Positions 17,164 to 38,700 of a stretch of DNA of 64,000 nucleotides are shown piece by piece. Location of the stretch: positions 160,001 through 224,000 of IMG/VR virus record IMGVR_UViG_3300023283_000076. One strand, given 5' to 3'. The notes beneath the pieces are model-generated. The model saw only the letters and a list, made by a program, of their open reading frames with translations, ran no database searches and was not told the origin of the DNA. How positions within the stretch are numbered: position 1 is the stretch's first letter; each line of letters opens with the position of its first letter. A program made the position numbers and the translations under genes. The DNA is from a virus (taxonomy: Duplodnaviria; Caudoviricetes).

Positions 17164-18114
17164 TTACTCATCAAATTCCAATACTTCATCTGCCAACACA
17201 TTTTTTTCATTTGGAACTGGTTCCCCAATTGCATCTAATATGTTCTTTATGGGTTTGTCAACCAAGCTTAAAAGTTGTCTATCAACGTCTATGTATGGTT
17301 CTAAATTTTTCCACCATTCAGGTATTAATTGTAAATCTACAGGAAGTGCAATTGCATTAAATTTCCCAAACGTTTTTTTCTTATGAAAATATAATTTTTT
17401 TACCTTTTCACCTGAACGTATTTTAATAGATTGTCCATCATTATATTTTGTCAAACATATATTATAAAATATACTAGCCTTTGCCATATGTGGTATATTT
17501 GCTTCTTTGTCATTATTAAAAACATTGGTATATTTTTCTATTGAATTGACTCCAGAGGGAACACCTAATTCTAATACATCTCGTTGTTTTAAATCTCTTT
17601 TAAACTCTACAATATCTTTTTTTACTGTTTTCCATGATTCTCCTTTCAAAAATCGTTCAAAAAAATTAGTTAATGTTTTTCGTATATATTTTGGAAGGTT
17701 CGTCTTCTTTATCTGTAAGCCCATAACTTTCATCTCATCAACTGGATTGCCATCAAGGTTTATGAGATGCAACAAATAATGTTTTTTTGCTACAAATATT
17801 CCTCTATCTGAAATTACCTCTTGTTCGGCTATTATATAATTTTTTCTTTTTTCATCACAATGAAACGCCTTTTGCATAAATTTCGGAAAGCTATTGTTTA
17901 CCAATTTACATACTGCCCCTGCAACGGCACTTGAGTTTTCTTCATTGTCTGCCCCGGTGATGAAATAAATACTGTTATGTACTAAGACATCATTAGCCAC
18001 AAAAAATGGATATTTTTCATCTTTCATTACAACATCATATACATAATCTTCTTCATCTAATAATATTTTTTCTATTGTTTTTACTTTTGACCTTTCAATG
18101 ACTGTATCATCCAT
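17164..18114 (-). CDS. DNA polymerase B C-terminal fragment preceded by the C-half of a split intein
   Basis: ...VYDVVM...FFVANDVLVHN|SIYF; then KKHY, MGLQIKK; AGAGGA RBS. Confidence 0.92.
   Translation of the reverse strand: MDDTVIERSKVKTIEKILLDEEDYVYDVVMKDEKYPFFVANDVLVHNSIYFITGADNEENSSAVAGAVCKLVNNSFPKFMQKAFHCDEKRKNYIIAEQEVISDRGIFVAKKHYLLHLINLDGNPVDEMKVMGLQIKKTNLPKYIRKTLTNFFERFLKGESWKTVKKDIVEFKRDLKQRDVLELGVPSGVNSIEKYTNVFNNDKEANIPHMAKASIFYNICLTKYNDGQSIKIRSGEKVKKLYFHKKKTFGKFNAIALPVDLQLIPEWWKNLEPYIDVDRQLLSLVDKPIKNILDAIGEPVPNEKNVLADEVLEFDE
17974..18114 (-). mobile_element. Split intein, IntC half (47 aa)
   Basis: Block F (VYD) and block G (VHN) followed by Ser+1. Confidence 0.88.
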
Positions 18115-18180
18115 TTTATAGTTTCCTCTTATGGTTTTTTGTTTATCTTTTTTATAATCTAATTCCCAAACTGTTCGGTA

Positions 18181-20340
18181 TCACTCTTTAAAAGTTATGA
18201 AAATATCTTTTTCTGACAGTTCTGCTGCTTTTATAGTAATAAATTTACCGTTTCTTTCTACTACAAGAGAATGATCTTCTGTTACAGTTACTTCTTTTCC
18301 ATTATCTAATGTTATTTTATATAATGGTTTTTTAACTTTATGTCTATATACAGTAAGTACTTGTTTAGTTATCTTTTTCTTTTGTTCTGGGTTATAACAT
18401 GGCGAAAAGTATTCATCATTATTGAATTTAATAATTTGTTTGTTGTTCTTATCAGTAAACACTCCATGCTTGTCGGAAAGATAATCAAACCAATTTTCTA
18501 TTGTTTCATTTTTACCATTTATAGTTATTATAGAATCTTTTGTAACACTATCAGTATCACCATAAATTATTGATTCTGATGGAAATTTATATTCTCCATC
18601 TAATGATTTTGCAATTTGTTTAGCCATATGCAATAAAATTTCTCTACCCGTCTTGGTTGTAGATTCTGCTATTCTCACGTCAAAAAACCTAAAGTATTTG
18701 TTGCCAAAAACACCATACATGGAGTTTAACTGAATCTTTTTTAAATATTGAATATTATCATAGTATTCCTTCTGTTTTTCATATGCAGGATCTTTGGTTT
18801 CCCCATATTTTTTTGTCATTTCAGCTTTCAATTTTTGATATTTTATTCTATCCTCAAACCAACTAGTCAATATGGATGGAATGATACCTTCTTGTGATTG
18901 GTCAAATATTGTTCCATGTGCTGATATACTCCATTTATTATTATGGAGATATTCGTTCCATTCTGCAGCAGTCATAGTATCATCACGACCATTCTCGTAC
19001 AGTACAGTAAGCTCTACATCGTTTTTTTCCATTATGTACTCATACGCCTTATCATTTTCGAAAAATTGGCCTATGAGCGTCTCAGGCGATATGTTAATCG
19101 CTCTCATTGATGAAGGATATAGAGATTTAATATCCACTGAAGAAATCCATTCATGTAATCCAATTTGTGGTTCCAATACGAATGCTCCCTCGAATTTTTT
19201 TCCATGTTCATCTACAGAATATGGAGCATCTGGAAGTACGACTCTTTCTGGCAATTCATGCTTGCAAAAATTTAAAATAGCGGTATCTGATGTACTAACC
19301 GTAGTTAATACAGATGGGATTCTATTTGTGACCATATGCGAAAAATTGATAGCCAGATTCATATATTTAAATTTTAAATCTAACCCTTTTAGAATTTCAG
19401 TATCTCTAATATTATATTTTATAAATTGATCAAAGTCTTCTCGATATAAACGATATAAACTTTTTTCATAGTCCAATTTTTCCATACCCTCAAGTTCTTC
19501 CTCTGCTACTGCTTCTAGAGAATATGAGGACCGTTGGTTTGCGTCAAACTTCTTGACCATTTGCATAAAATCTATCCAAACCCTTCCGATTGGTTTAACA
19601 TTTATTTCTGTGGACCCATATTGTTCGACTTCTATAACACCTACATCCTGATCTATCTCAGGAAAATTCATAGCCCTTGTAGCATTTTTTCCAAATATTT
19701 TCATCAATCGGAAATAAATATATGGAGTATCAAAAAAATCGCTGTTCCAACCGCTGATAATATCAGTGTCTTCGATTTCTTCTATAAACTTAGTTAATAA
19801 TTCCTTTTCATTTTTAAAAATGTATATCTCTGCTTCATGTTCTAAATGTTCTAACTGTTCTACACTACAATTTTTCCAAGCACCCTCTTTTGGTGGTACT
19901 GCAAAAACTATAGATTTGTTTGTATGCTTATGATATAAAGCTATGGAATTTACCGGTGCGTATGGATTTGAACTACCTGCATGACCCTTTTTTGGATCAT
20001 AATCAACCTCGATATCATAAAACGTTATATTTAATTCGTCTATTGGGGCTTTATAGTAGTTGTCAGATAATATTTTTAATTCTGGAGATATATCCGATTC
20101 ATATAAGTTAACCCCACGTTCTCTAAGTCTTTTTCGTTCTTTAAAAAATTCAAACGGATCGTCAAATTCAATGTTTGTTAATTTTGCACCTTTAACAGAT
20201 TTGTACTTCTCTGTTGATTCATAATCTTCTATAAAAAAATTATACGGGGCATCGTATGTTACTAGTACCCTGCCCTGCGGGGTTCTTTCCCATACATATA
20301 CATTTTTTTTATCATTCGATGTCGCCGTAGAAATATACAT
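18181..20340 (-). CDS. DNA polymerase B N-terminal fragment (3'-5' exonuclease plus motifs A/B) ending in the N-half of a split intein
   Basis: FYDIEV, GWNSDFFD, YNIRD, DIKSLYPS, KIQLNSMYG, YGDTD|SVTKDS. Confidence 0.95.
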   Translation of the reverse strand: MYISTATSNDKKNVYVWERTPQGRVLVTYDAPYNFFIEDYESTEKYKSVKGAKLTNIEFDDPFEFFKERKRLRERGVNLYESDISPELKILSDNYYKAPIDELNITFYDIEVDYDPKKGHAGSSNPYAPVNSIALYHKHTNKSIVFAVPPKEGAWKNCSVEQLEHLEHEAEIYIFKNEKELLTKFIEEIEDTDIISGWNSDFFDTPYIYFRLMKIFGKNATRAMNFPEIDQDVGVIEVEQYGSTEINVKPIGRVWIDFMQMVKKFDANQRSSYSLEAVAEEELEGMEKLDYEKSLYRLYREDFDQFIKYNIRDTEILKGLDLKFKYMNLAINFSHMVTNRIPSVLTTVSTSDTAILNFCKHELPERVVLPDAPYSVDEHGKKFEGAFVLEPQIGLHEWISSVDIKSLYPSSMRAINISPETLIGQFFENDKAYEYIMEKNDVELTVLYENGRDDTMTAAEWNEYLHNNKWSISAHGTIFDQSQEGIIPSILTSWFEDRIKYQKLKAEMTKKYGETKDPAYEKQKEYYDNIQYLKKIQLNSMYGVFGNKYFRFFDVRIAESTTKTGREILLHMAKQIAKSLDGEYKFPSESIIYGDTDSVTKDSIITINGKNETIENWFDYLSDKHGVFTDKNNKQIIKFNNDEYFSPCYNPEQKKKITKQVLTVYRHKVKKPLYKITLDNGKEVTVTEDHSLVVERNGKFITIKAAELSEKDIFITFKE
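18184..18549 (-). mobile_element. Split intein, IntN half (122 aa, Ser1)
   Basis: Begins SVTKDSII right after YGDTD; block B VTEDHSL; no endonuclease domain. Confidence 0.88.
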
Positions 20341-20405: not shown

Positions 20406-21026
20406 TTAAATATCCCAATTCTCAGGGTTTAATTCAAAATTTTCAGGGTGAAATTCATATGGTTTTGTTGATCTTATTTGTAACCTTACTTGAGTTAATG
20501 ATCCAATATTTACAGGAGCGACACCATTTGCAAAATTGGGGGCAGTTGGAAATATGATTAGTGTTCCTCGTTGTGGTTTAAAATTTATATCAAACGTGGG
20601 AAATTCTAATTTTCCCCCATTTACTTCAAAAAGGGGATCAAAGTCTGGTCTGTCATTATGATCATTTAACCATAAAATTCCGGTAAAGTCTATTAGATTA
20701 TATCGTACCCAACCGCGTTCCCGTGTTTGCATATATCCGTCAGTTTTAACTTTTGTAGGTTGATAACCGGGTGGGTACCATTCAAACATTAAATTATGTG
20801 TCCCCAAATAAGAAGTATTGAATTTATTTTCAAGTTTATATATAACATCGTCAAACGTTTGTAGAATGCGTGTGCTATTTAAACGACTCGATAATATAGT
20901 AACTTTAGGGTTTCCATCTTGACCTTTCATGGGAACAGCTTTGTCTATTCTTAAATCTTCTAATATTCTTTCACATAAAAGTGGTGATACAAATTCTTCA
21001 ATAATTAAAAATGGTATTTCTTTCAT
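20406..21026 (-). CDS. Prolyl-4-hydroxylase-like 2OG-Fe(II) oxygenase fold, apparently lacking metal ligands
   Basis: EEFVSPLLCERI, FTGILWLND, GGKLEFP, PQRGTLIIFP; expected HxD reads KTD. Confidence 0.7.
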   Translation of the reverse strand: MKEIPFLIIEEFVSPLLCERILEDLRIDKAVPMKGQDGNPKVTILSSRLNSTRILQTFDDVIYKLENKFNTSYLGTHNLMFEWYPPGYQPTKVKTDGYMQTRERGWVRYNLIDFTGILWLNDHNDRPDFDPLFEVNGGKLEFPTFDINFKPQRGTLIIFPTAPNFANGVAPVNIGSLTQVRLQIRSTKPYEFHPENFELNPENWDI

Positions 21027-21082: not shown

Positions 21083-21979
21083 TTACTCTGTAAGAGTGGG
21101 ATTCTGTTCTAAAATTATACCCTCAGAAGAACTATTTCTGGCTTTTCTTACAATAAATTCTTTTAGTTCGTCTTTGCCAGAATTTTCAATTTCTACATTT
21201 AAAGATATTTTGCTTACACCATCTTCAGTACATATGCCCGCATACACTTCTCGACCCATAAATTTTAATTTTCCCATCATACATGAATCATCGATTTTTT
21301 CAAAATCTTCTACAACAATTTTATTTGCATCGCCCATATTATATTTTATAGTAGGTTTATCACTAAAGGTTTTTATAGTTATATTATTTTTTTGTTCGGT
21401 ATCATGTTCGGCGAGGGATTCTTTTACTGTTTTAGATTCGTCATCTTCTTTTGATGATTTTGCTTTTTTTTCTCCTTCGTCTTTTTTTTCTATTCCCAGT
21501 ATATGTTTAAATAGTGTTTTTAATTCATCTTTGTTCTCTGCTACCGGAATATCATTTCTATAACATACGATATCAACGTTCCCTTTTCTATAAAACTTTT
21601 TAGGACAATATACGATTACTGTTTTATCACTTTCTAATACTTTACCTAACTCTAACAACGTTATAGGTGATTTACTATCTTCTGCAAAATATATTAGTAC
21701 CGCATCTGATTTTTCTATATGATCAAGCTCCCAAGATACTTGATCATAAAATTGTGTATTTTCTATAGATTGTGTCCATGAAGGGTCCCAATCTTCTCTT
21801 CTTGGGTTATATATTGTTATCTTAACTTGTTCTGAACTACATTCTTCTAAAAATTCAGTTATTTCTTTTTGCCAATCTTCGGAATCGCCCATGTCAATAG
21901 TTCCTGCTAAAAATATTTTAACAGAATTGGATAGTGGACGTTCTCTAGTGGGAGCTTTGAATACTTTTATATTACTCAT
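21083..21979 (-). CDS. Nucleoside 2-deoxyribosyltransferase-like protein with C-terminal extension
   Basis: KIFLAGTI..DWQ..YNPRR..QVSWELDHIE..SPITLLELG..YRKGNVDIVC. Confidence 0.85.
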   Translation of the reverse strand: MSNIKVFKAPTRERPLSNSVKIFLAGTIDMGDSEDWQKEITEFLEECSSEQVKITIYNPRREDWDPSWTQSIENTQFYDQVSWELDHIEKSDAVLIYFAEDSKSPITLLELGKVLESDKTVIVYCPKKFYRKGNVDIVCYRNDIPVAENKDELKTLFKHILGIEKKDEGEKKAKSSKEDDESKTVKESLAEHDTEQKNNITIKTFSDKPTIKYNMGDANKIVVEDFEKIDDSCMMGKLKFMGREVYAGICTEDGVSKISLNVEIENSGKDELKEFIVRKARNSSSEGIILEQNPTLTE

Positions 21980-27775: not shown

Positions 27776-29914
27776 TTAGTTACTTGTTGGCACACTTTCG
27801 ATACTACCAACGTCACCCACATCAGCACTTTGCAACACAACACGTATCGGTACAAAAATAAATTCCACCGCCAGTGTAGGCTTAAGAGCAACATCAATCC
27901 AAAGCTCTTTTCGCTGTACTCTATCCGGAGTATTATTCGTAGAATCGCTTAAGGTTGCGAAATCTTGTAACGCTCTAGTGTTCAATAATCCATTTAAGAA
28001 ACTATCTACTACTGCCTTTGCTTGGTTCCTAGTAATCTGGTCATTTGGCTCAAATAGGAACGGAAAGACTGATCGTCTAATTTCTCTTTTTACAAAGCGT
28101 AACATTCTTTCCACATTTATTGACTCTCTAGAAGATACAGCAGGGGCTGCAGTTTTCTGACCCATCACCAATATCCCTCTTCCAGTGATTCGTGAAATTG
28201 GATTTATGTTTTTGGGAAATTCATAAAGAGAATCTCTCTTTCCACGATCTAGATTTTCTACTACAAATGTCGTGGGTGCTCCTAGAATTCCAGAAACGTA
28301 TCCCGTATCGGTTAGGTGGGGGCATATGCCTCGTGAGCTTCCTGCTGGGGCGAACCATAACTCTCTTGACCTATCATTAAATGCAAGAACTCTAAGAGCA
28401 GTTCCTGCTGAGGTTGTCAATATTTCTTTTCCATCGATATTTGATGAAAGTCCATGGCCATACCAATATGCTAACCCAACATCAGTATTACGCTCATCAA
28501 CTGCCCAGTTTATTATACTATCTAGACCTGACGGTGGTTTATCAAACGGTGTCTCACCTACAACAAACACTTCATCTAACATGTCATCAGCTAATCTGAC
28601 TAATTCATCAACTAGCTCAGGATATCCGGGGCAGGCTAATAAATTATAACTAAACGCGTCCGGGTTTCTAATTCCTAAGTCAGGATCATTTACTGCTGCT
28701 TGAAGTTTTTCAACAATTTCTTCTTTTCTTTCTTCGTTATTTGTTCCTAATTGTGTGAAGTTTCTAAATTCTAATGTTAACTCATATTCATCGGAAGCAG
28801 TTTCAACAATTGAACATACTTGTTCTGATGTATATTCTGTAGAATCTTCGATAGCTGCAAATAACCCATCAAACGCTCCAACAGCATCTTGATCAAAACC
28901 ATTCGGGAACATTAATAGAGGCTGTGGACCTTTGCCAGATACTGGTTCAGCGAAAGAAGAAAATAGATTCAACGAACTAAATAAGCCCTCTGCACCTGAA
29001 ACATCTTCAGTTATTTCTATTTCAGATGTTACCCCCGGAAAACCAGAAGTCAATCTTAATCTTCCAGCGTTAAAATCTATAGAACCATTAGACCCGAGTT
29101 CTGCATTAATATTATCAATTAATTCACCGAATGTTTGTATTTGTGATCCTTCTAGTGAAAGCGGCTGGGGTGTTCCGTCAATCGTAACGGTTGCTGAGAA
29201 TGTTGAACTATCATCCACTACGCCAGTTACATCTGCACGAGTCAAAAATCCGCCAGACGTATCAAATATAACTTCTTGATATGCTGCGGCTGGTTCAGTG
29301 TGATCATCTAAAAAGCCATCTTTAAATAAGTTGTTGTTTCCTGTTCTTCCTTTAGCCGAAAATGAATAACAATCAAACACTTCTTGCAAAGATTCTTCTA
29401 ACAGAATTTTAACATCTTCACCATCAATTGTTGTTTTCTGGTTTTGCCCTGTTAGGTTATTTTCTTGATTAAATTCTTCTAAGTAGTCTACAAAAAGTTC
29501 ATTGAAGAAGTTACATGATTCTGCTATTTTTTTACTAAATAGACTTCTAACCGCACCGATACTATCATTAGTATTTACATTTGCACGTACAACCAATGCT
29601 CTATTACCAACTTCAAGGAACTTGTTAAGTGCATCTAATCCATATTCGTTTCTTGCATCACCATGAAATGGTTCTCCTTCGGCGCTTTCTAAATACCGTG
29701 GGATGCCATAAAGACGTAAGCTTTCACTTATTGATGTTACTTCTCTATAAACTCCATGTTCATATGTTCCTAGGGCGGGTGTGACACCATCTGGCTGTGT
29801 TTTTTGCTCTTCTGTTGCAATGAAAATAACTGGAATGGCTGCCGCTCTTCCCGGAACAAAAAAACTTTCGTCTATTATTGTTACACTTGTACCCGGACTA
29901 ATTAAATCTGCCAT
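27776..29914 (-). CDS. Tail sheath protein (gp18-like)
   Basis: LISPGTSVTIIDES, NEYGL, LLACPGYPEL, WFAPAG..RG, INPI..GQKT, INVERML, LFEPND. Confidence 0.95.
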   Translation of the reverse strand: MADLISPGTSVTIIDESFFVPGRAAAIPVIFIATEEQKTQPDGVTPALGTYEHGVYREVTSISESLRLYGIPRYLESAEGEPFHGDARNEYGLDALNKFLEVGNRALVVRANVNTNDSIGAVRSLFSKKIAESCNFFNELFVDYLEEFNQENNLTGQNQKTTIDGEDVKILLEESLQEVFDCYSFSAKGRTGNNNLFKDGFLDDHTEPAAAYQEVIFDTSGGFLTRADVTGVVDDSSTFSATVTIDGTPQPLSLEGSQIQTFGELIDNINAELGSNGSIDFNAGRLRLTSGFPGVTSEIEITEDVSGAEGLFSSLNLFSSFAEPVSGKGPQPLLMFPNGFDQDAVGAFDGLFAAIEDSTEYTSEQVCSIVETASDEYELTLEFRNFTQLGTNNEERKEEIVEKLQAAVNDPDLGIRNPDAFSYNLLACPGYPELVDELVRLADDMLDEVFVVGETPFDKPPSGLDSIINWAVDERNTDVGLAYWYGHGLSSNIDGKEILTTSAGTALRVLAFNDRSRELWFAPAGSSRGICPHLTDTGYVSGILGAPTTFVVENLDRGKRDSLYEFPKNINPISRITGRGILVMGQKTAAPAVSSRESINVERMLRFVKREIRRSVFPFLFEPNDQITRNQAKAVVDSFLNGLLNTRALQDFATLSDSTNNTPDRVQRKELWIDVALKPTLAVEFIFVPIRVVLQSADVGDVGSIESVPTSN

Positions 29915-29951
29915 GTTGTAAACTCCTATAAAATACTTTTTCTTATAATGT

Positions 29952-29960
29952 TATTTATTA
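29952..29960 (-). promoter_or_regulatory. Late promoter variant TAATAAATA
   Basis: ATAAATA core 38 nt upstream of the sheath start. Confidence 0.55.
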
Positions 29961-29985
29961 TGTGTGTAATAGATTTTAGGAAAAA

Positions 29986-30786
29986 TTACTGTTCAGGTGG
30001 ATCTAAATCTGCTACATCAAATATTGTTTTATAGCCCTCATCAGGATTATCACCTCTAGCGGCGGCAGATTCTTTAATTTCTGCAACCGATGATATGTCC
30101 AAATTTTCCAATGTTTGAACCCGCGCTTTTATTTTTTGTACTATATTCTCTCTTACCTGAACCGGGGCAGACATCCATGCTAAAAACTGAAATGATAGCG
30201 TCGATGACAATATTCTTTTATCTGTTCCCGCAGGATAATTTTCTTCTAACGTTATACCGTTTAATCTAACATAATTTAAAGCGGTCCAGTCATCTGCATC
30301 ATCTGATGTGTTAAATTGAATTTCCGGGCGAAATAATAAAAATATCTGTTCCAAAAGTTCATATTTTTGATGAAGACTGGAAGTTAATATATTAAGCTCT
30401 ACACCAAACCAATATGGAATTGGCATTAATTTTGTTACAGTTTTAAGATCATCCGGGAATGTTCCTCCGCGAGGGAATGTTACATGGGTATGTGTGGTCC
30501 CCTGTCCCTTCATTCTGTCTGTAGCTATTTCTATTGCTGTTATATGCGCCGCAATTGACGGTAATTGAATTGGAACGTTTGGAGTATTGTCTGCTAATAT
30601 ATACGCTACTACTTTGTCCTTTGACCCGTGCACTACTGGTACTCTTATCAAATTAGAGTTTGAGCCATTTTCATTTTTTCCTGTTGACACTTGAACTCCA
30701 GAAAATATAGCCATGAATTGAACAAGATATTTTTCTATCTGTGCTTGAAAATAATAATCGTTTAAACTTGAATTTTGTGTTGTCAT
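29986..30786 (-). CDS. Tail sheath stabiliser/terminator (gp15-like)
   Basis: QIEKYLVQFMAIFS..IRVPV..G..LP..P.PY...ELNI..LEQI..F.P. Confidence 0.8.
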   Translation of the reverse strand: MTTQNSSLNDYYFQAQIEKYLVQFMAIFSGVQVSTGKNENGSNSNLIRVPVVHGSKDKVVAYILADNTPNVPIQLPSIAAHITAIEIATDRMKGQGTTHTHVTFPRGGTFPDDLKTVTKLMPIPYWFGVELNILTSSLHQKYELLEQIFLLFRPEIQFNTSDDADDWTALNYVRLNGITLEENYPAGTDKRILSSTLSFQFLAWMSAPVQVRENIVQKIKARVQTLENLDISSVAEIKESAAARGDNPDEGYKTIFDVADLDPPEQ

Positions 30787-30793
30787 GGTTAAA

Positions 30794-30829
30794 TTATATG
30801 TACTATTATATGTACTATTATATGTATTA
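30794..30829. repeat. 12-bp tandem repeat x3 (TTATATGTACTA) in the gp15-like 5' UTR
   Basis: ttatatgtacta ttatatgtacta ttatatgtatta. Confidence 0.9.
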
Positions 30830-30873
30830 TTTATTAATGTTATTTTTTTAGAAGTAGTTGAAATATATTGACA

Positions 30874-33800
30874 TCAGATCAACCCTGTATTATAGTTTTC
30901 GGACACTTCTGTGCTGGTAAGCGCCCTATCGTAAAAGACGATCTTGTCAAGAATCCCATCAAGCTCAAAGCCTGAATCCCCGGAGAAAATCGAGCCGATG
31001 TGAAAAATTGTCCCGTGTACGTCGCCACTCTCAACAGGCCCTGAATTTACAGCGACTCCATCGACATAAATCGTGCCCGTAGAGCCACTCCGAGTCACTA
31101 CAACATTATGCGGCTCTCCGTCGGTGATTCCGGTGTCACCTCCGGAGTCAAAGTTGGACGGATCGCCGCCCGTCCTTGTAAATACCCGGATATGGCCGGG
31201 GGTGAGGTTTCCTGTCGCATCGCCATTTATGCTGATGAAAATTCTTGCATTGAAGTTATCCGAGTCCCACATAAGCATTTCATTCGCTTCATTGGTCGTT
31301 TGAATCCAGAATTCACAAGTGAAATCACCATTGCCATCCCAGATCGGAACCTCTATATGTGCTTGGTTGCCCGGCACTCGCATCGCGGCTGTGCTGCCCG
31401 ATGCAAGCGGCGTAGCCCCGAGCGTGGGTGTACCACGGAACGTGCCATCGTTTCCGTTACCGGATGAGTCAGCAGCGGCCACTCCGCTGGTCTCATCGAC
31501 TTTCCAGTAGCCAAGCGGGTTGCGAGAAAGAATAACCTCGTCATGCGTGACCGTTTTTAATGGTGGACCGCTCTTGTATGGGTGGTCTGCGGGCAGGTTG
31601 GATTCAATCCCGAATTTGTGGGCGAGGTATCCTTCTAGTTTTTGTCTGTCATCAGTCGAAAGTGCGGAGGCTGTCATCACAAGCGCCCTGAATTTGCCGC
31701 TCATATTGACGCTCGAAGACCCGTCAGCGGCAACGGCGTTCATTGTATCGACGGTGTTGACCGTTGTAGTTCCGCTAGTGTTTTCGGATACACCATCCCG
31801 CCAAATAGTATGGTCACCCATTGTAGTACCGTCTAATATAGCGCCATAGATGCCACCCCCCGAATCGTTCAAGGATGTAGTTGTGCCGCCTCCTTGAATT
31901 TCCAACCTGATCCCCCCATTATCTTGCCGAAATGTCCAGCGAGTGCCTTCATCAGACAACTCACTGTAGTTCATGCTAAAAAGTCCACGATCTGAGCTTG
32001 AACCGGGGTCTACAACCATCATAAGCGTTCTGTTATCGCTACCTGAAATTCCGAGCGTGGGTAGGTCTCCGCGTTGCGTGCCCCCGGCAAATACCAAATG
32101 CTGGCTCTTGGAATCTGTGGCTATTGCTGGATTCGTGTTAAAGGTCATGTGACGGCCATTACCGCTTATATCATCAAGCTGCTGGGCATCTCCATTGACG
32201 TCTGTTGTGATCGTGTCGTTTTCGCTTGCATCAAGCCATAGCGACGTAGTGATGTCTGCAGGGGTCCATAGGTCCTCGTATACAAACGCTGCCGCGAGCG
32301 TGTCGGATTCACTTCCCTGAGTCACCGCCACGTCAACTGTTCCGGTTCCAGCCGGGGTCGTGCAAGTGATTTCTGTTTTACTGACAACCGTGATGTTGGT
32401 TGCAGATACACCGCCGAAGGTAACTGTCGCGCTGTTACCGGTGTCGAAATTCTCGCCGGTGATCGTGACGCTGGTTCCGCCTGCTTCATCGCCTGTAGTC
32501 GGGTTGATGCTACTTATAGACAACATTCTGGCTTCTGATTGGGCCTGTATTTGAGCTGCAGAAAGCACCTTCCGGTAAAACGCTACCAACTGCACGCTTG
32601 CGTCACTTTCTTTGGTTATAGATGAATCCCTTACCGCACCGATTGCAATTTCCCCTCGTGAGGATAATCGTCCAAGACCTCCGGATAACGTCCCGGTTGC
32701 AACAGAAACACCATCTACAAATACCTCGACAGCGTCTGTTGAGTCTGTGAAAGTTACGTGGACAAGGTGTGTGGTTGCATCTGCCGTTAGGCCGGTAGAA
32801 GAACTGTACTGCTCCCACGATCCGTTAAAAACTTTCACTAAGATCGAACCATCTGATTCAAGTGATACTTCAGTTCCCTGATTGTTGGAGACCGTTCTAA
32901 TTCCCCAATGATTTGACAGATTCCCTCCAGTGTCTCTTCGCGCAAGAAATGCGAACGTTGCATCATCGCCTTTTTTGGGCTGGTCTGCATTTGTCGCAGA
33001 TGTGGTTGAATATGTATCAGCCAACCCTGCATTGTTGTTCGTTAAGTCAACTGAATCTATTGCAAAGCCGTCTAGCGCCCCGGCAGTCCCTACGTTCGAT
33101 CCTCGATCAAGTGTGCTGACACCAGATACAGACTCGGTTACTGTCGAGCCAGCTTGATCAAAGTTCCAAAGCTGGATCGGAGAATCTGCTAGCATTACGT
33201 CAACCAAGCTATCAGAAGACTGCATACTGGTTTGTGTTGGTGATGGTGTAGGTGTTGGAGTAACACTCTCAGATATCGATGGTGTGGGTGTTGGTGTAGC
33301 ACTCTCAGATACTGATGGTGTAGGTGTTGGTGTAGGTGTAGTACTATCAGATACCGATGGTGTAGGTGTTGGAGTGGGGGTGGGGGTAACACTCTCAGAT
33401 ATCGATGGCGGGCTGTTCTTGTAGGGGTGGTCTGCTGGCAATTGGCTTTCTAGTCCATGCCGATGGTGCAGATATCCTTCAACTTTTTCACGCTCTGCGG
33501 GAGCATTTTTCAAGATCAAAACCTCGCCCATAGCGCCGTTCAGGTAATCACCAGTCGATAATCCAGTCAGCCTGCCAAGTCTTACCTGCCCTCCTGTTGT
33601 CATTTCAGCAACTGCGCCGGATGTGGTGACGTTGCTGATTTCCGTTGCGGCGTCGTAGATCCTGACAGACGTCCCGACGATTTTCCTAAGCTGCGATACG
33701 AAAAGAGGTTTTCCGGAATTGGGGAAGCTGTTAAATACCGAGCTGTCGGCACGGGTTGAATTGTTAAACGCTTGTAAAAGCTGTCTGGTGTCTCGAATAT

Positions 33801-35748
33801 ACCGAGCTAACCAAAAGCCAGACGAGTGCTCGCCGAAAGCTATAATCCCTTCATACTCTGCGGCAGCCCCGACCGCATCAGCACGCATAACAATAAATGC
33901 TTCGTACTCATCATTTGTGCCGTCTTCGGGGTTAATATCAGGCCCGAGGAATTCTTGGTTATTGTCGAATTGCCAAAACGCTCGCCCGTTAATATTGACC
34001 GTAGTCGGAGCGCCGTTCGAAACGAAGTCATGGTTGTTCCCAGATTTATCGAGCCAATTAAATTCGCCACCCCCGGCATCCGTTACTGTGGATGCGTCGT
34101 CGCGATCAAGCCAGATAGGAAGATTTGCGGCGGGGATGCTTGCCGGTGTCCAAACGCTTGATGCTGCTGTAAACTCAAACGCCCCCGCCAGTGTCTCGGA
34201 CTCGCCACCTTGAGTCAGAACCACGTCAACTGTTCCGGTGCCAGCCGGAGTAGTACACGTGATTTCGGTATCGCTGACCACGACGATATTGGTCGCATCG
34301 ATGCCGCCGAAGGTGACTGTAGCCGCTGTGCCTGTATCGAAATTCTCGCCCGTGATCGTAACATCGGTGCCACCTGCTTCATCACCTGTCGTCGGGTTGA
34401 TGCTACTTATAGACAACATACCGGATTGTGGTGATGTTACGTTTATATCCGATCCGATTTGAAAATATTCTTTCCCATTTTGTATTATACTAAGTTGATC
34501 TGAACTAGGATCTTCTATAGGAAAACTTATTATATTTGAAGTAGGAACAGTATCATCATATGTAAAAGTATTATCCCATTGACGTATTTTAAGTGCTTGT
34601 GCTATACGATCTATCCTACATGCAAAGGCATTTATTGTATCTCCACTTCCCGCAAACGCCAATCCAACAATCTTCTTAACTCCACCAAATTCTGCTATTA
34701 ATGCAGATCCAGAATCCCCACCATCAATTATTCCAGCGCTTCCATCAGAATGTTGATAATGTATAATATCACCAAATGGTATAGACAAATTTCCATTATC
34801 AAAACCTACGTTTATATTAACACCCAATCCCACTGCCTCTATTGTACAAGCAGGGTCAGTTCCCCACCCTTTAGGTCCTGTTGTTCGTCCCACAGAAAAC
34901 ATTTTCGGTTTGGGTGTATCTAATAAACTATCAATTTCTGTGGTAGTAGCAAATGGTAAGAATGCGGTAGATTCGGTCACTCCTGAAGGATGGTGTATTT
35001 TAAAAGAATCGTTTTCAGTTATATTTTGAGGATTCATTATAAGAAGTGCAGTATCTACGTAGTTCATTTGACCATCGTTATGCATTGGATGGTATCTTTT
35101 GATATCAGAAGATACATCAATGATACTATCAGCAAATCCGGTTCCACTTCTAGCTCTCGCAGATGAAGAATAGGATTGACCATCAACAGGCCAATTAAAT
35201 TCTTTTTTTGTATTATACGGATTATCACTTTCTTCACGTATGTCTCTATTTGAGGTAAACAGCAATTTATCTACTACCACATGGGCATTGGTTATTCCTA
35301 CGACTTTATCATCTATATCATCTACTGCAAAAAACCCTAATGTTCCAACACTAAATCCGGATGGATCTCCTGATGTATTAGTTTCCCAACCAAGTGGGAA
35401 TTTTATTATTTCTTGACCACCTTTCAATGGTGTTATAAGTGAAGGATTGCCTTGCAATTTAAGTATATCTGGATCGTTGGAGTTAGAGAAACATGCCATG
35501 AATTTTATTTCATTTATTTCTTTAACATCAGTTTTAAATTTCGTTCCATCTATTTCTATTTCTTCAGGTACTATTTCTGAGGGGGATAATTGATCTAACG
35601 ATTTCTTTTCTGGGACACTCACTCTTATACATATCTCTGACGTTTCCTTCCCATCCTTTTCTTTTCTAGCAATTGATATTGATCTACAGTTATAACTGTT
35701 TTCTTTAAATAATTTCTCAATTTCATGTTTTATGTTATTAATATCCAT
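30874..35748 (-). CDS. Mosaic virion protein: Nal1-like trypsin serine protease, IPT/TIG, LamG-like lectin domains, PT linker
   Basis: GTLG..TNAHVV..VDTAL..GRTTG..GDSGS triad; two IPT modules; WLD/PADHPYK and YWKVDETSG LamG-like modules. Confidence 0.8.
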   Translation of the reverse strand: MDINNIKHEIEKLFKENSYNCRSISIARKEKDGKETSEICIRVSVPEKKSLDQLSPSEIVPEEIEIDGTKFKTDVKEINEIKFMACFSNSNDPDILKLQGNPSLITPLKGGQEIIKFPLGWETNTSGDPSGFSVGTLGFFAVDDIDDKVVGITNAHVVVDKLLFTSNRDIREESDNPYNTKKEFNWPVDGQSYSSSARARSGTGFADSIIDVSSDIKRYHPMHNDGQMNYVDTALLIMNPQNITENDSFKIHHPSGVTESTAFLPFATTTEIDSLLDTPKPKMFSVGRTTGPKGWGTDPACTIEAVGLGVNINVGFDNGNLSIPFGDIIHYQHSDGSAGIIDGGDSGSALIAEFGGVKKIVGLAFAGSGDTINAFACRIDRIAQALKIRQWDNTFTYDDTVPTSNIISFPIEDPSSDQLSIIQNGKEYFQIGSDINVTSPQSGMLSISSINPTTGDEAGGTDVTITGENFDTGTAATVTFGGIDATNIVVVSDTEITCTTPAGTGTVDVVLTQGGESETLAGAFEFTAASSVWTPASIPAANLPIWLDRDDASTVTDAGGGEFNWLDKSGNNHDFVSNGAPTTVNINGRAFWQFDNNQEFLGPDINPEDGTNDEYEAFIVMRADAVGAAAEYEGIIAFGEHSSGFWLARYIRDTRQLLQAFNNSTRADSSVFNSFPNSGKPLFVSQLRKIVGTSVRIYDAATEISNVTTSGAVAEMTTGGQVRLGRLTGLSTGDYLNGAMGEVLILKNAPAEREKVEGYLHHRHGLESQLPADHPYKNSPPSISESVTPTPTPTPTPSVSDSTTPTPTPTPSVSESATPTPTPSISESVTPTPTPSPTQTSMQSSDSLVDVMLADSPIQLWNFDQAGSTVTESVSGVSTLDRGSNVGTAGALDGFAIDSVDLTNNNAGLADTYSTTSATNADQPKKGDDATFAFLARRDTGGNLSNHWGIRTVSNNQGTEVSLESDGSILVKVFNGSWEQYSSSTGLTADATTHLVHVTFTDSTDAVEVFVDGVSVATGTLSGGLGRLSSRGEIAIGAVRDSSITKESDASVQLVAFYRKVLSAAQIQAQSEARMLSISSINPTTGDEAGGTSVTITGENFDTGNSATVTFGGVSATNITVVSKTEITCTTPAGTGTVDVAVTQGSESDTLAAAFVYEDLWTPADITTSLWLDASENDTITTDVNGDAQQLDDISGNGRHMTFNTNPAIATDSKSQHLVFAGGTQRGDLPTLGISGSDNRTLMMVVDPGSSSDRGLFSMNYSELSDEGTRWTFRQDNGGIRLEIQGGGTTTSLNDSGGGIYGAILDGTTMGDHTIWRDGVSENTSGTTTVNTVDTMNAVAADGSSSVNMSGKFRALVMTASALSTDDRQKLEGYLAHKFGIESNLPADHPYKSGPPLKTVTHDEVILSRNPLGYWKVDETSGVAAADSSGNGNDGTFRGTPTLGATPLASGSTAAMRVPGNQAHIEVPIWDGNGDFTCEFWIQTTNEANEMLMWDSDNFNARIFISINGDATGNLTPGHIRVFTRTGGDPSNFDSGGDTGITDGEPHNVVVTRSGSTGTIYVDGVAVNSGPVESGDVHGTIFHIGSIFSGDSGFELDGILDKIVFYDRALTSTEVSENYNTGLI

Positions 35749-35751
35749 AAA

Positions 35752-38700
35752 TTAATTCTCCCATGTTATAAAGATAGTAGAAACGTCATTCAGATTTGAT
35801 GGCGTTGGCGTAGGTGTAGGCGTGGGAGTAGCACTCTCAGATATCGATGGTGTGGGTGTTGGAGTAACACTCTCAGATACTGACGGTGTAGGTGTTGGAG
35901 TAGCACTCTCAGATATCGATGGTGTTGGTGTAGGTGTGGCACTCTCAGATACCGACGGTGTAGGTGTTGGAGTAGCACTCTCAGATATTGATGGTGTTGG
36001 TGTGGGTGTTACACTTTCAGATACTGACGGTGTTGGCGTAGGTGTTACACTATCAGATATTGATGGTGTTGGTGTAGGTGTGGCACTCTCAGATACCGAC
36101 GGTGTAGGTGTTGGAGTAACACTCTCAGATACTGACGGTGTAGGTGTAGGTGTAGGTGTAGGTGTAGTACTATCAGATACCGATGGTGTAGGTGTTGGAG
36201 TTGCACTATCAGATGTCGATGGCGTAGGTATAGGTGTTGCACTTTCAGATATTGATGGTGTGGGTGTTGGAGTGACGCTCTCAGAAACTGACGGTGTGGG
36301 TGTAGGTGTTACACTATCAGATATTGTTGGTGTAGGAGTAGGTGTAGCACTTTCAGAAACTGACGGTGTAGGTGTAACACTCTCAGATGTTGTAAATTCA
36401 AATGCCCCCACCAGCGTATCCGCTATACCGTTCTGTGTGACCACAACGTCAACTATTCCGGTACCAGCCGGGGTCGTGCAGGTGATTTCGGTATCACTGA
36501 CTATCGTGATGTTAGTCGCAAGTACATTATCAAACCTGACTGTCGCGCTTCTGCCGGTGTCGAAATTCTCGCCCGTGATCGTAACGTCGGTTCCCCCAGC
36601 TTCATCCCCTGAAGTCGGGCTGATGCTACTTAGAGATATCACACTTGGTGTCGGTGTCGGAGTAAATCCGCTACCCTGACTAGGTGTCGGTGTCGGAGTA
36701 AATCCGCTGCTCTGAGTAGGGCTCGGCGTGGGAGTAACGCTTATAGATACTGACGGTGTAGGTGTGGGAGTAACACTTATAGATATTGACGGAGTAGGTG
36801 TGGGTGTGACACTTGTAGATACTGATGGCGTAGGCGTGGGTGTGACAGAAACCGATGGTGTTGGAGAGGGTAATATTTCACCACAGTCAATTTCTGAAGG
36901 AAACACCTGTATTATATCCTCCAGTGTTGGCGTATTTAATTCTACCCTGTTAGATACATCTACAGATACCCATGAAGTTTTAAATATATCAGGATGTTTT
37001 TGATTTAACGATACTGAACGCTCCAGTAATTCAAAGAAAATATCGTTAACTTCAACAGCAGAAAATATTTCATATATCGATTTATAAAAATCTCTTATAC
37101 CTTCTATTCTATCTAAATCAAAACTATCAATGAATTCTTCTATGTCAACTCGCTCCCACTGTCTTGAAGGATCCAGTAGTACTTCCATAGTTAATTTCAT
37201 TATCTCAGGCTTGTCCATAAGAACTCTGCCATTATATAACCCTATTCTTGATGTTGCTCCTTCTATTAAAGTATCAAATCGTATTCTGCTTTCGCTTGGA
37301 AGTGACGATTCTGTATCAAGATCAAAATCATTATTGATCACAGTTTTTTCAGTTGCAGCTTCTATAACCTTCTTCCACAATAATAAATCTATTTTTCCAG
37401 ATTGTTTTCTTCTAGTTAATTTCCATGACCAATGCTTATTACTTAATTTTAAGTCCTTTTTGTTTAATCGATCACGTAAGGTATAATCTTTAGTAAGGCG
37501 TAATATGTAATTATTATCGTCTTTAACGGTTCGATTTAATCCCTTTATAGTACATGCAGAGAATCGTGTTGGCAGGGTATTATCTTCTGGATCATATGTG
37601 CTACCGAATAAAACACCGTAACCCGTTCCTTCATTTCTAAAGCCATGTATTATGGCAAAAGGTTCTGACATTGATTTATATGCTCGTTCAGCATCAAATA
37701 AAGTTAGAGAAGTATTTTGCAGCAATTTTTCTGAGCGCATATCGGACACCCAATAAAAATAAATATATTCTTCCTCTAATGAGTTAGTATTGAATGACTT
37801 AACTTTGGTATGTGGATAAATTATTACATACTCTTCATTTTCCAGTTCTTCTTGTGTTGGTTCGTGTGGTTCCCGCACAAGAGTTAACATATCTTTTTGT
37901 TGTATGTCCCCAGATGTTATATCATTGTCTATCATTACTTCTAAGGCAGATGCATTATCATATTCTATAGATCGTAGAAATTCTCCGTTAACATATACGT
38001 TTAAAGAATCACCGGAGGAAAACATAGAAGTATCGTTTGTATTGTCATATCCTGCCACAGGAAATTTTGATACTGTTATCGTCTCTTCCTGCCATATTGG
38101 TTCTTCTGTAGTTCCAATATTTTTATATACTATTCTACGAGGATTTCCGGTAACTTTCTCTGACAGTTCTATTCGTCTATTTTCATCCTCTTCCGCTTGT
38201 TCAATGTATTCAGTTGGGGAGAGCGTTGTCTGGATCCATTTATAAAGTTTAACATCACCAAATTCTTCTAATTGTCCCCACACTAAACTTCTTTCGTCTT
38301 CTGTTAAAAAGATATCTTCATCAAAATATGGTTTATAAAATTGTCTGGACGTATCTAACCAAATAGTTCCTGTTTCTTTACTGTGCCAGTAATTTTTTTT
38401 CACCCTACTTTCATTTAAATCATTAGTGTATTTCGCCGGGTCATCGGGTCTATCTATATCAATAGGAAACTCACCAAGTGGATTATGTTGATCCAATGCG
38501 GGGTTCCATATAGGAATTTCTTTTAGCACCTTTTCTGGTTTTTTAGTTTCGATTAATCTAAGTGGGTTTTCTTCTTCATATGCATAGGTTAATGTTACGA
38601 CTTTAATATTTTCCCAATCATCAAAATCTTCATCTATAAATTCTAAAATTCTAGAGTTTATGAATCTAAAGGATATTCCTTCGGATGCATTTTTTTCTGT

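Follow-up and report, generated by a model that had tools for sequence, protein, structure and literature searches.

A DNA polymerase B gene pair in an uncultured jumbo phage: a predicted split Ser1/Ser+1 intein and a spacer resembling the end of a Vsr-like endonuclease gene

How a DNA polymerase of family B (PolB) could be obtained from a gene that is broken inside the catalytic motif C is the question raised by two adjacent genes in the IMG/VR record IMGVR_UViG_3300023283_000076, which stems from an uncultured jumbo phage, comprises 270,653 bases at a G+C content of 34.5%, is about 79% complete and is without end repeats. We studied bases 160001-224000 of this record, a stretch of 64,000 nucleotides (nt) that is termed the window in the following and to which coordinates refer unless indicated otherwise. 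Both genes are located on the minus strand: gene 1 (18181-20340) encodes 719 and gene 2 (17164-18114) 316 amino acids (aa), and both share one reading frame, gene 2 being separated from gene 1 by one TGA and then 22 sense codons. As set out below, we consider it highly probable that the interrupting element is a naturally split, Cys-independent (Ser1/Ser+1) class 1 intein residing within PolB motif C at YGDTD|S, which most likely joins both halves of the polymerase.

Anatomy and identity of the intein halves

The first 597 residues of gene 1 (18550-20340, minus strand) constitute the PolB N-extein with the exonuclease domain (Pfam DNA_pol_B_exo1, E 6e-18) and the polymerase palm as far as YGDTD of motif C (DNA_pol_B, E 8e-34). 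The junction reads ...IIYGDTD|SVTKDS..., and from the Ser1 codon (18549-18547) onwards the gene encodes an N-terminal intein half (IntN, 122 aa, 18184-18549) that features block A (SVTKDSIITING), the NX motif YRH and block B with TEDH before it is closed by the TGA at 18181-18183. On the other side of a 66-nt spacer (18115-18180), gene 2 opens with the C-terminal half (IntC, 47 aa, 17974-18114), in which blocks F (YVYDVVM...PFFVAN) and G (DVLVHN) are present. It ends with ...FVANDVLVHN (Asn codon 17976-17974), followed by SIYF, the Ser of which is Ser+1 and opens a C-extein of 269 aa (17164-17973, including the stop codon) that covers the thumb region, as delineated by tblastn and by alignment with the intein-free relative P0020 discussed below. 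A putative ribosome-binding site (AAGAGGAA, 18130-18123) is located 9 nt ahead of the ATG of gene 2. IntN contains 18 D/E, 21 K/R and a single Cys (C51), while IntC contains 12 D/E, 6 K/R (net charge -6) and no Cys. A preliminary description of this DNA, made from the sequence alone, had proposed precisely such an arrangement at 17974-18549, i.e., between and including the codons for the terminal Asn and Ser1, with the motif YGDTD|SIYF split, a 122-aa IntN (S1, TEDH), a 47-aa IntC ending VHN|S, a ribosome-binding site belonging to gene 2, one non-catalytic Cys in IntN and 12 D/E vs. 6 K/R in IntC; all of these positions and counts proved exact, and the proposed split of PolB by a Ser1/Ser+1 intein is supported by profile searches and by a complete set of catalytic residues.

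The Pfam profile Intein_splicing matched the tail of gene 1 with 40.7 bits, and a six-frame search of the genome with PF14890 returned 61.2 bits (E 1.6e-17, cut-off 35.8) for a match that spans both halves across one TGA. In a PDB sequence search the intein matches were led by 9HTH, the Aes123 PolB1 intein (IntN, E 2e-13), so that the comparison with Aes123 PolB1 suggested in the preliminary description was apt, and tblastn to the CP21 intein gave E 1e-12. Because of the Pfam scores and the homology to 9HTH, a chance match is ruled out.

Searches of metagenomic proteins led to further uncultured phages in which PolB is split likewise; they form a clade, and their contigs were compared. Four of their loci (L005, L006, L007 and L008), with exteins 59-89% identical to those of the window, were aligned together with the window intein and those of GOM-OPS-1, Aes123 and CP21. 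Across these eight inteins Ser1, the His of the NX motif, Thr and His of block B, Asp of block F, the terminal His-Asn and Ser+1 are invariant. The block B sequence T-E-D-H of the window corresponds to IntN residues 92-95, the DHS of this block being invariant in the alignment, and its NX motif V-Y-R-H-K aligns with KH of Aes123 and CP21 and RH of GOM-OPS-1. A His after Arg or Lys in this motif has been described as specific to Ser1 inteins (PMC10189870). The window element thus features what characterizes class 1 inteins, namely Ser1, block B, blocks F and G with His-Asn and Ser+1 and a match to the HINT profile, as well as the attributes of a naturally split one, i.e., separate open reading frames (ORFs) with a stop and start signals of their own and a 122/47 aa division that fits the typical split. 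The insertion at DTD|S in motif C is the same as in published Cys-independent constructs. Cys51 is part of the variable stretch that connects block A with the NX motif, outside catalytic or conserved positions; it is conserved in five close relatives, not in GOM-OPS-1 or Aes123, and shares an alignment column with C43 of CP21, the mutation of which to Ser yields an intein that splices at least as fast (PMC12707363 SI).

Joining of the polymerase halves

The predicted spliced product of 866 aa (597 + 269) carries an intact YGDTDSIYF motif. A contiguous, intein-free PolB of the very same length (P0020, on contigs of up to 246 kb) with the junction YGDTD|SIFF aligns to it with zero gaps at 84% identity, such that the intein is precisely inserted. 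Window, L008 and P0020 form a clade in the extein tree (support 100/99), with the N-extein of the window being 89% identical to that of L008 and 84% to that of P0020. The presence or absence of the intein is therefore polymorphic among close relatives, as mobile elements would lead one to expect. When the locus was compared with records of cultured phages by megablast, no match was returned. At the protein level, the polymerases of the Xanthomonas jumbo phages Xoo-sp13 and XacN1 come closest among cultured phages, with 44% identity; both are encoded by one contiguous, intein-free gene in which the tblastn matches of the two window halves abut; with gene 2 as query, these matches begin at residue 47 or 37. 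One PolB and one intein were found in searches of the whole record, i.e., of about 79% of the genome, and because each is single in the record, the split PolB is presumably the replicative polymerase.

Judged by what is established for the family, the two halves would be translated separately, probably from one transcript, the C-terminal half from its own ribosome-binding site and ATG, and the slightly basic IntN and the acidic IntC would associate into the HINT fold. An N-to-O acyl shift at Ser1, aided by the His residues of block B and the NX motif, would be followed by attack of Ser+1 on the oxyester and formation of a branched intermediate, whereupon cyclization of the terminal Asn and an O-to-N shift would release a contiguous 866-aa polymerase with YGDTDSIYF. 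When structures were predicted for IntN and IntC, each with five extein residues, the complex reached an ipSAE of 0.78 vs. 0.01 for the best control, the runs sharing at least 93% of contacts at a partner pLDDT of at least 73. Of 78 solved complexes, 51 pass the mark applied to ipSAE, as do 2 of 108 mismatched pairs. Because structures of split-intein complexes have already been solved, the predicted complex indicates likeness to these and is not proof of binding.

As an alternative, the intein fragments might merely hold the two chains together without splicing, which would result in a non-covalent two-subunit polymerase. Such a situation has a parallel in T4-related phages, in which split gp43 occurs without protein splicing, as two chains in some Aeromonas T4-like phages, according to work cited in PMC2677866. 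It would also agree with the rapid evolution of the intein, which exceeds that of the extein by a factor of 2-6: the path from window to L008 measures 0.83 in the IntN tree vs. 0.13 in the extein tree, that from L005 to L006 0.53 vs. 0.25, and window and L008 share 62% identity in IntN vs. 89% in the extein. On the other hand, Ser1, the NX His, Thr and His of block B, His-Asn and Ser+1 have all been kept in five diverged lineages, both intein halves being open in five lineages with exteins that differ by up to 40%. Within the clade, dN of the intein halves amounts to 0.17-0.32 vs. a saturated dS of roughly at least 0.8, which does not permit the use of exact dN/dS ratios and limits the statement to dN being well below dS; this is consistent with purifying selection on the intein halves. 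Furthermore, a HINT domain of 169 aa positioned one residue past the catalytic Asp pair would probably block the active site, and the inteins of Aes123, CP21, LCGC14 and GOM-OPS-1 all splice (PMC12707363). Docking without splicing is thus improbable, and joining of the halves by the intein is preferred. Topologies of the IntN and extein trees are compatible. Horizontal replacement of the intein was considered as well and is not supported, since the IntN tree pairs the window with L008 (72/88), the remainder of that tree being without resolution.

Several points weigh against splicing of the window intein as we propose it, one of which, concerning the independence of a second assembly, is given with the TGA codon below. 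Co-transcription, association of the halves and splicing activity at this very locus are what we infer from the sequence and from the family, and the indirect nature of this reasoning also counts in favor of mere docking. The His of block F in Aes123 and CP21 is missing in the window (EKYPFF) and its clade; it is likewise missing in the active LCGC14 and GOM-OPS-1 inteins, the former compared by eye only, from an optical character recognition copy of the supplement sequence, and outside the formal alignment. Wild-type Aes123 splices to about 30% (PMC11923092), and among the inteins studied in PMC12707363 only LCGC14 does so virtually quantitatively, with low efficiency being linked to aggregation of IntN. 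As efficiencies of relatives vary so widely, efficient splicing of the window intein cannot be assumed. Finally, with the record about 79% complete, a second polymerase may possibly be encoded elsewhere in the genome.

The TGA codon and the origin of the spacer

The relatives L005-L008 share a layout in which an N-terminal half ending in IntN is followed by an ORF of 332-335 aa and this by a C-terminal half opening with IntC. The protein encoded by the intervening ORF has an N-terminal zinc finger of the Ros/MucR type and a weak C-terminal match to restriction endonucleases, is affiliated with PHROG 22677 and produces a sub-threshold Pfam match to MTES_1575. That of L008 is 32% identical (E 4e-41) to the product of an ORF annotated as 'putative VSR endonuclease' between the Aes123 intein halves. 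A search of PDB sequences with the relatives' ORF yielded only a weak match to a Ros zinc finger (E 0.14). Based on the homology to the Aes123 ORF, MTES_1575 and PHROG 22677, the ORF of L005-L008 probably encodes a Vsr-like homing endonuclease.

The window spacer can be traced back to this gene. Its portion 18175-18115 aligns at 83% DNA identity to the last approximately 60 nt before the IntC start in L008, the match (L008:4441-4487) falling inside the endonuclease ORF, and its translation (TVWELDYKKDKQKTIRG) matches the C-terminal tails of the endonucleases of L005-L008 (e.g., TVWELDYKNDKDKTIRD in L007 and TVWEIDYRKNKQSTIKD in L008). A length difference of 1 nt in the alignment puts the remnant into the frame of the IntC ATG, and ribosome-binding site and ATG of the window sit exactly where the relatives begin IntC. 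The spacer is therefore the remnant of the last approximately 20 codons of a deleted Vsr-like endonuclease gene, and the two window genes are in frame because leftover endonuclease coding sequence has been shifted by 1 nt. In an ancestral locus the halves would have been separated by a Vsr-like homing endonuclease gene standing on its own, the layout referred to as 'fractured gene'; about 950 bp of this gene would have been deleted in the window phage, and the approximately 20 surviving codons would supply the ribosome-binding site for the IntC gene. The preliminary description had noted the lack of a homing endonuclease. This holds true for the region between the intein halves in the window, where no endonuclease gene is present, while the lack itself would be a secondary loss, with relatives carrying the Vsr-like gene and the spacer representing its remnant. 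Scans of the spacer for promoters, terminators and RNA folds revealed no terminator-like site, no unusual fold and nothing notable.

The coincidence of frames, with no second stop between TGA and ATG, could also be read as a sign that the TGA is not a working stop, be it due to recoding, programmed readthrough or a sequencing error, and that the locus encodes one polypeptide with a cis-splicing mini-intein of 192 aa. Contiguous intein-bearing PolBs do occur in relatives, e.g., P0014 (1038 aa) and the Salicola phage SCTP-2. TGA is, however, an ordinary working stop in this genome: when it is read with the standard code, 86% of it is occupied by ORFs of 100 aa or more, and 92 of these 323 ORFs are closed by TGA. 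None of the 48 tRNAs of the genome reads UGA and none of the tRNA genes lies within the window, and an alternative genetic code or suppressor tRNA was therefore rejected. An assembly error, which the preliminary description had named as a possible source of the TGA, is not borne out, as a 7.6-kb contig from a separate Logan assembly of a public run (word depth 20.5) is identical to the window across 17600-18900 and thus at the stop codon itself, the run probably being the source sample and the assembly therefore independent while the DNA is not. A further run (X2) covers about 220 bases of the stretch in two short contigs (39 and 163 bases) and is silent on the junction. Among the runs listed as containing this stretch, none is of RNA. 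The strongest indication for a genuine stop comes from comparison with relatives, since IntN ends at the same point and is followed by a full gene in the four closest relatives and in three loci of the wider clade. In addition, the 22 codons after the TGA match the C-terminal tail of the relatives' Vsr-like protein rather than an intein, the difference of 1 nt explains the frame, and a strong ribosome-binding site with ATG is found exactly at the relatives' IntC start. The open in-frame stretch is thus neither an intein linker nor a sign of readthrough, and a single polypeptide with a cis-splicing mini-intein is very unlikely. We also rejected the related idea of a contiguous mini-intein caught in the act of splitting, the 22 codons in question deriving from the endonuclease.

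That the polymerase gene is decaying within a defective or mis-assembled contig and gives rise to no functional polymerase, for which the approximately 79% complete metagenome assembly without end repeats and the deletion of the endonuclease might speak, is hardly credible, as neither ORF is disrupted, the exteins share 81-89% identity with those of L008 at a dN of 0.07-0.11, the synteny of the replication module is conserved with relatives and the PolB is the sole one found in the record.

Having traced the spacer of the window to a probable endonuclease gene, we compared what lies between IntN and IntC in ten split loci from the wider clade. An ORF of 323-335 aa is present in seven of them (L005-L008, L016, L017 and the contig of P0017) and is Vsr-like where tested (L005-L008), the 323-333-aa ORFs that take the place of the endonuclease in L016, L017 and the P0017 contig being uncharacterized. 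In one of the ten loci, the contig of P0016 (Logan SRR14005096), a gap of 261 nt with an ORF of 51 aa is found, a stage of endonuclease decay that is intermediate between the complete gene (about 333 aa) and what remains of it in the 66-nt spacer of the window. The remaining two, the window and GOM-OPS-1, feature spacers of less than 70 nt. The 47-nt spacer of GOM-OPS-1 translates to NEFLKNETDKIKEII, which resembles the tail of the Aes123 endonuclease (DNEYLANKDGTISRIVEEI), a likeness that is suggestive only. The following joint proposal is possible but in our opinion rather doubtful as a whole: window, GOM-OPS-1 and the P0016 contig may constitute a decay series in which independent deletions were forced to keep the last approximately 20 codons of the endonuclease, as these hold the translation start signals of IntC, and, separately, the window intein, with at most 41-49% identity to the characterized relatives compared and an acidic IntC that amounts to a reversed charge pattern, might be an efficient Cys-less split intein orthogonal to CLm and LCGC14.

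What is new here is the comparative history, with an endonuclease that appears to have been deleted and a tail surviving as spacer and ribosome-binding site. By comparison, the locus cleanly illustrates how a selfish element that resides in an essential phage gene passes through its life cycle, as one narrow phage clade contains all of the following: an allele without intein, a split intein accompanied by an endonuclease gene, one with a decaying remnant of this gene and one with almost no trace of it.

Relation to characterized inteins and genomic neighborhood

The window intein is a moderately divergent addition to a known, biochemically characterized family of PolB split inteins. The family includes Aes123 PolB1 together with its engineered CL and CLm forms (crystal structure 9HTH, PMC11923092), the atypically split PolB16 OarG intein as a Ser1 representative in PolB motif C (PMC10189870) and the Ser1/Ser+1 inteins CP21 PolB1, LCGC14 PolB2 and GOM-OPS-1 PolB2, for all three of which biochemical characterization is available and which combine an IntN of 115-120 aa and an IntC of 39-46 aa with one non-conserved Cys each and the NX His (PMC12707363). 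Identities to the window amount to 37% (IntN) and 41% (IntC) for GOM-OPS-1, 39% and 45% for CP21, and 33% and 49% for Aes123, the last resulting from the alignment that had been recommended in the preliminary description.

The closest parallel in organization is GOM-OPS-1 PolB2 from a marine-sediment metagenome (JQIA01000298), the exact published coordinates of which correspond to our locus L011 and which trans-splices in vitro (Humberg et al. 2025, PMC12707363). It shares with the window the DTD|S site, Ser1 and Ser+1, RH in the NX motif, DHS in block B, the tail ...VYDVVM...FVAND(I/V)LVHN, a similar size (IntN 120 aa and IntC 46 aa vs. 122 and 47 aa) and adjacent genes in a syntenic neighborhood without endonuclease, the spacer comprising 47 nt vs. 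66 nt in the window. A single non-conserved Cys is present in both, though at different positions (C57 vs. C51). In contrast, the exteins are only about 43% identical, and splicing has been shown for GOM-OPS-1 whereas the window intein is known from sequence. Aes123 and CP21 agree with the window in the motif C site, in the Ser1/Ser+1 oxyester chemistry, in the NX His and in an acidic IntC. They differ in keeping the block F His and a gene between the halves (the 'putative VSR endonuclease' in Aes123 and a 'hypothetical protein' of 333 aa in CP21), and they occur in T4-like phages of cultured bacteria while the window stems from an uncultured jumbo phage. The polymerase of CP21 (L012, NC_019507, 637-4745) is broken into about nine short coding sequences in RefSeq.

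In the 'fractured gene' arrangement, split-intein halves flank a free-standing Vsr-like (EDxHD, I-Bth0305I-type) homing endonuclease gene (Dassa et al. 2009, PMC2677866). This layout is seen in L005-L008, while the window keeps only about 60 nt of the endonuclease 3' end with the C-terminal motif. In the split inteins of cyanobacterial DnaE and Nanoarchaeum PolB the nucleophiles are Cys and the genes for the two halves lie far apart; DnaE belongs to polymerase family C, and its intein halves are charged in the opposite way to those of the window. In these systems and, as predicted, in the window, trans-splicing unites the products of two genes into a replicative polymerase, and no endonuclease is involved.

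Ser1/Ser+1 split inteins in PolB are not rare. In addition to the characterized CP21, LCGC14 and GOM-OPS-1 inteins, at least 49 of the 120 listed metagenomic homologue clusters comprise PolB N-terminal halves that end 114-139 residues past DTD and contain an intein starting with Ser; among the same 120 clusters, 47 look intein-free and at least five are contiguous with a Ser1 intein. Inteins of this family also occur in cultured phages, among them the PA5oct group, in which the gene is split with a Hef-like endonuclease of 560 aa between the halves, Lak megaphages and Tenacibaculum PTm1. A related intein of the Ser1/Thr+1 type is located two residues upstream, at YGD|TDS, in Klebsiella phage KP13-7 (L003 3456-8219) and Salicola phage SCTP-2 (L001 2495-5764). 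The copy in KP13-7 is split, with a Vsr-like ORF of 325 aa between its halves, and that in SCTP-2 is a contiguous mini-intein ending with LKN, without the penultimate His.

Split inteins that are independent of Cys are wanted as tools because they splice under oxidizing conditions and are compatible with the labelling of thiols. With CLm and LCGC14, the number of highly efficient representatives reported by 2025 stood at just two (PMC12707363), and each divergent natural member is therefore a candidate worth screening. The window intein, which has dozens of similar counterparts in metagenomes, may possibly be of value in this respect, the new orthogonal tool envisaged in the preliminary description being speculative; its activity, efficiency and orthogonality are not predictable from the sequence analysis performed here.

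Some features of the genome outside the polymerase gene pair may be added. Two tRNA arrays are located outside the window (G000:C1, about 28900-37800 on the complement and about 64300-74900 on the plus strand) and mirror each other in gene content and order (Thr-Val, Met, Leu-Leu-Leu, Tyr, Pro and Arg), due either to an extensive inverted duplication or to an artefact of the assembly. The genome carries 48 tRNA genes, and the anticodon of one tRNA-like gene could not be assigned. Directly upstream of polB, the window encodes a protein of 206 aa without Pfam match (20406-21026, minus strand). Nine of the ten related split loci, and likewise the intein-free L009, have a gene for 204-208 aa upstream of polB. 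It is the immediate neighbor in L005, L007, L008 and L009 and lies one or two genes off elsewhere, the contig of L017 beginning too near polB to judge. The next window gene (21083-21979, minus strand) encodes a protein resembling nucleoside 2-deoxyribosyltransferases (PF15891, E 3e-32) with a C-terminal extension of about 170 aa that has no Pfam match, and is syntenic in most of the close relatives.

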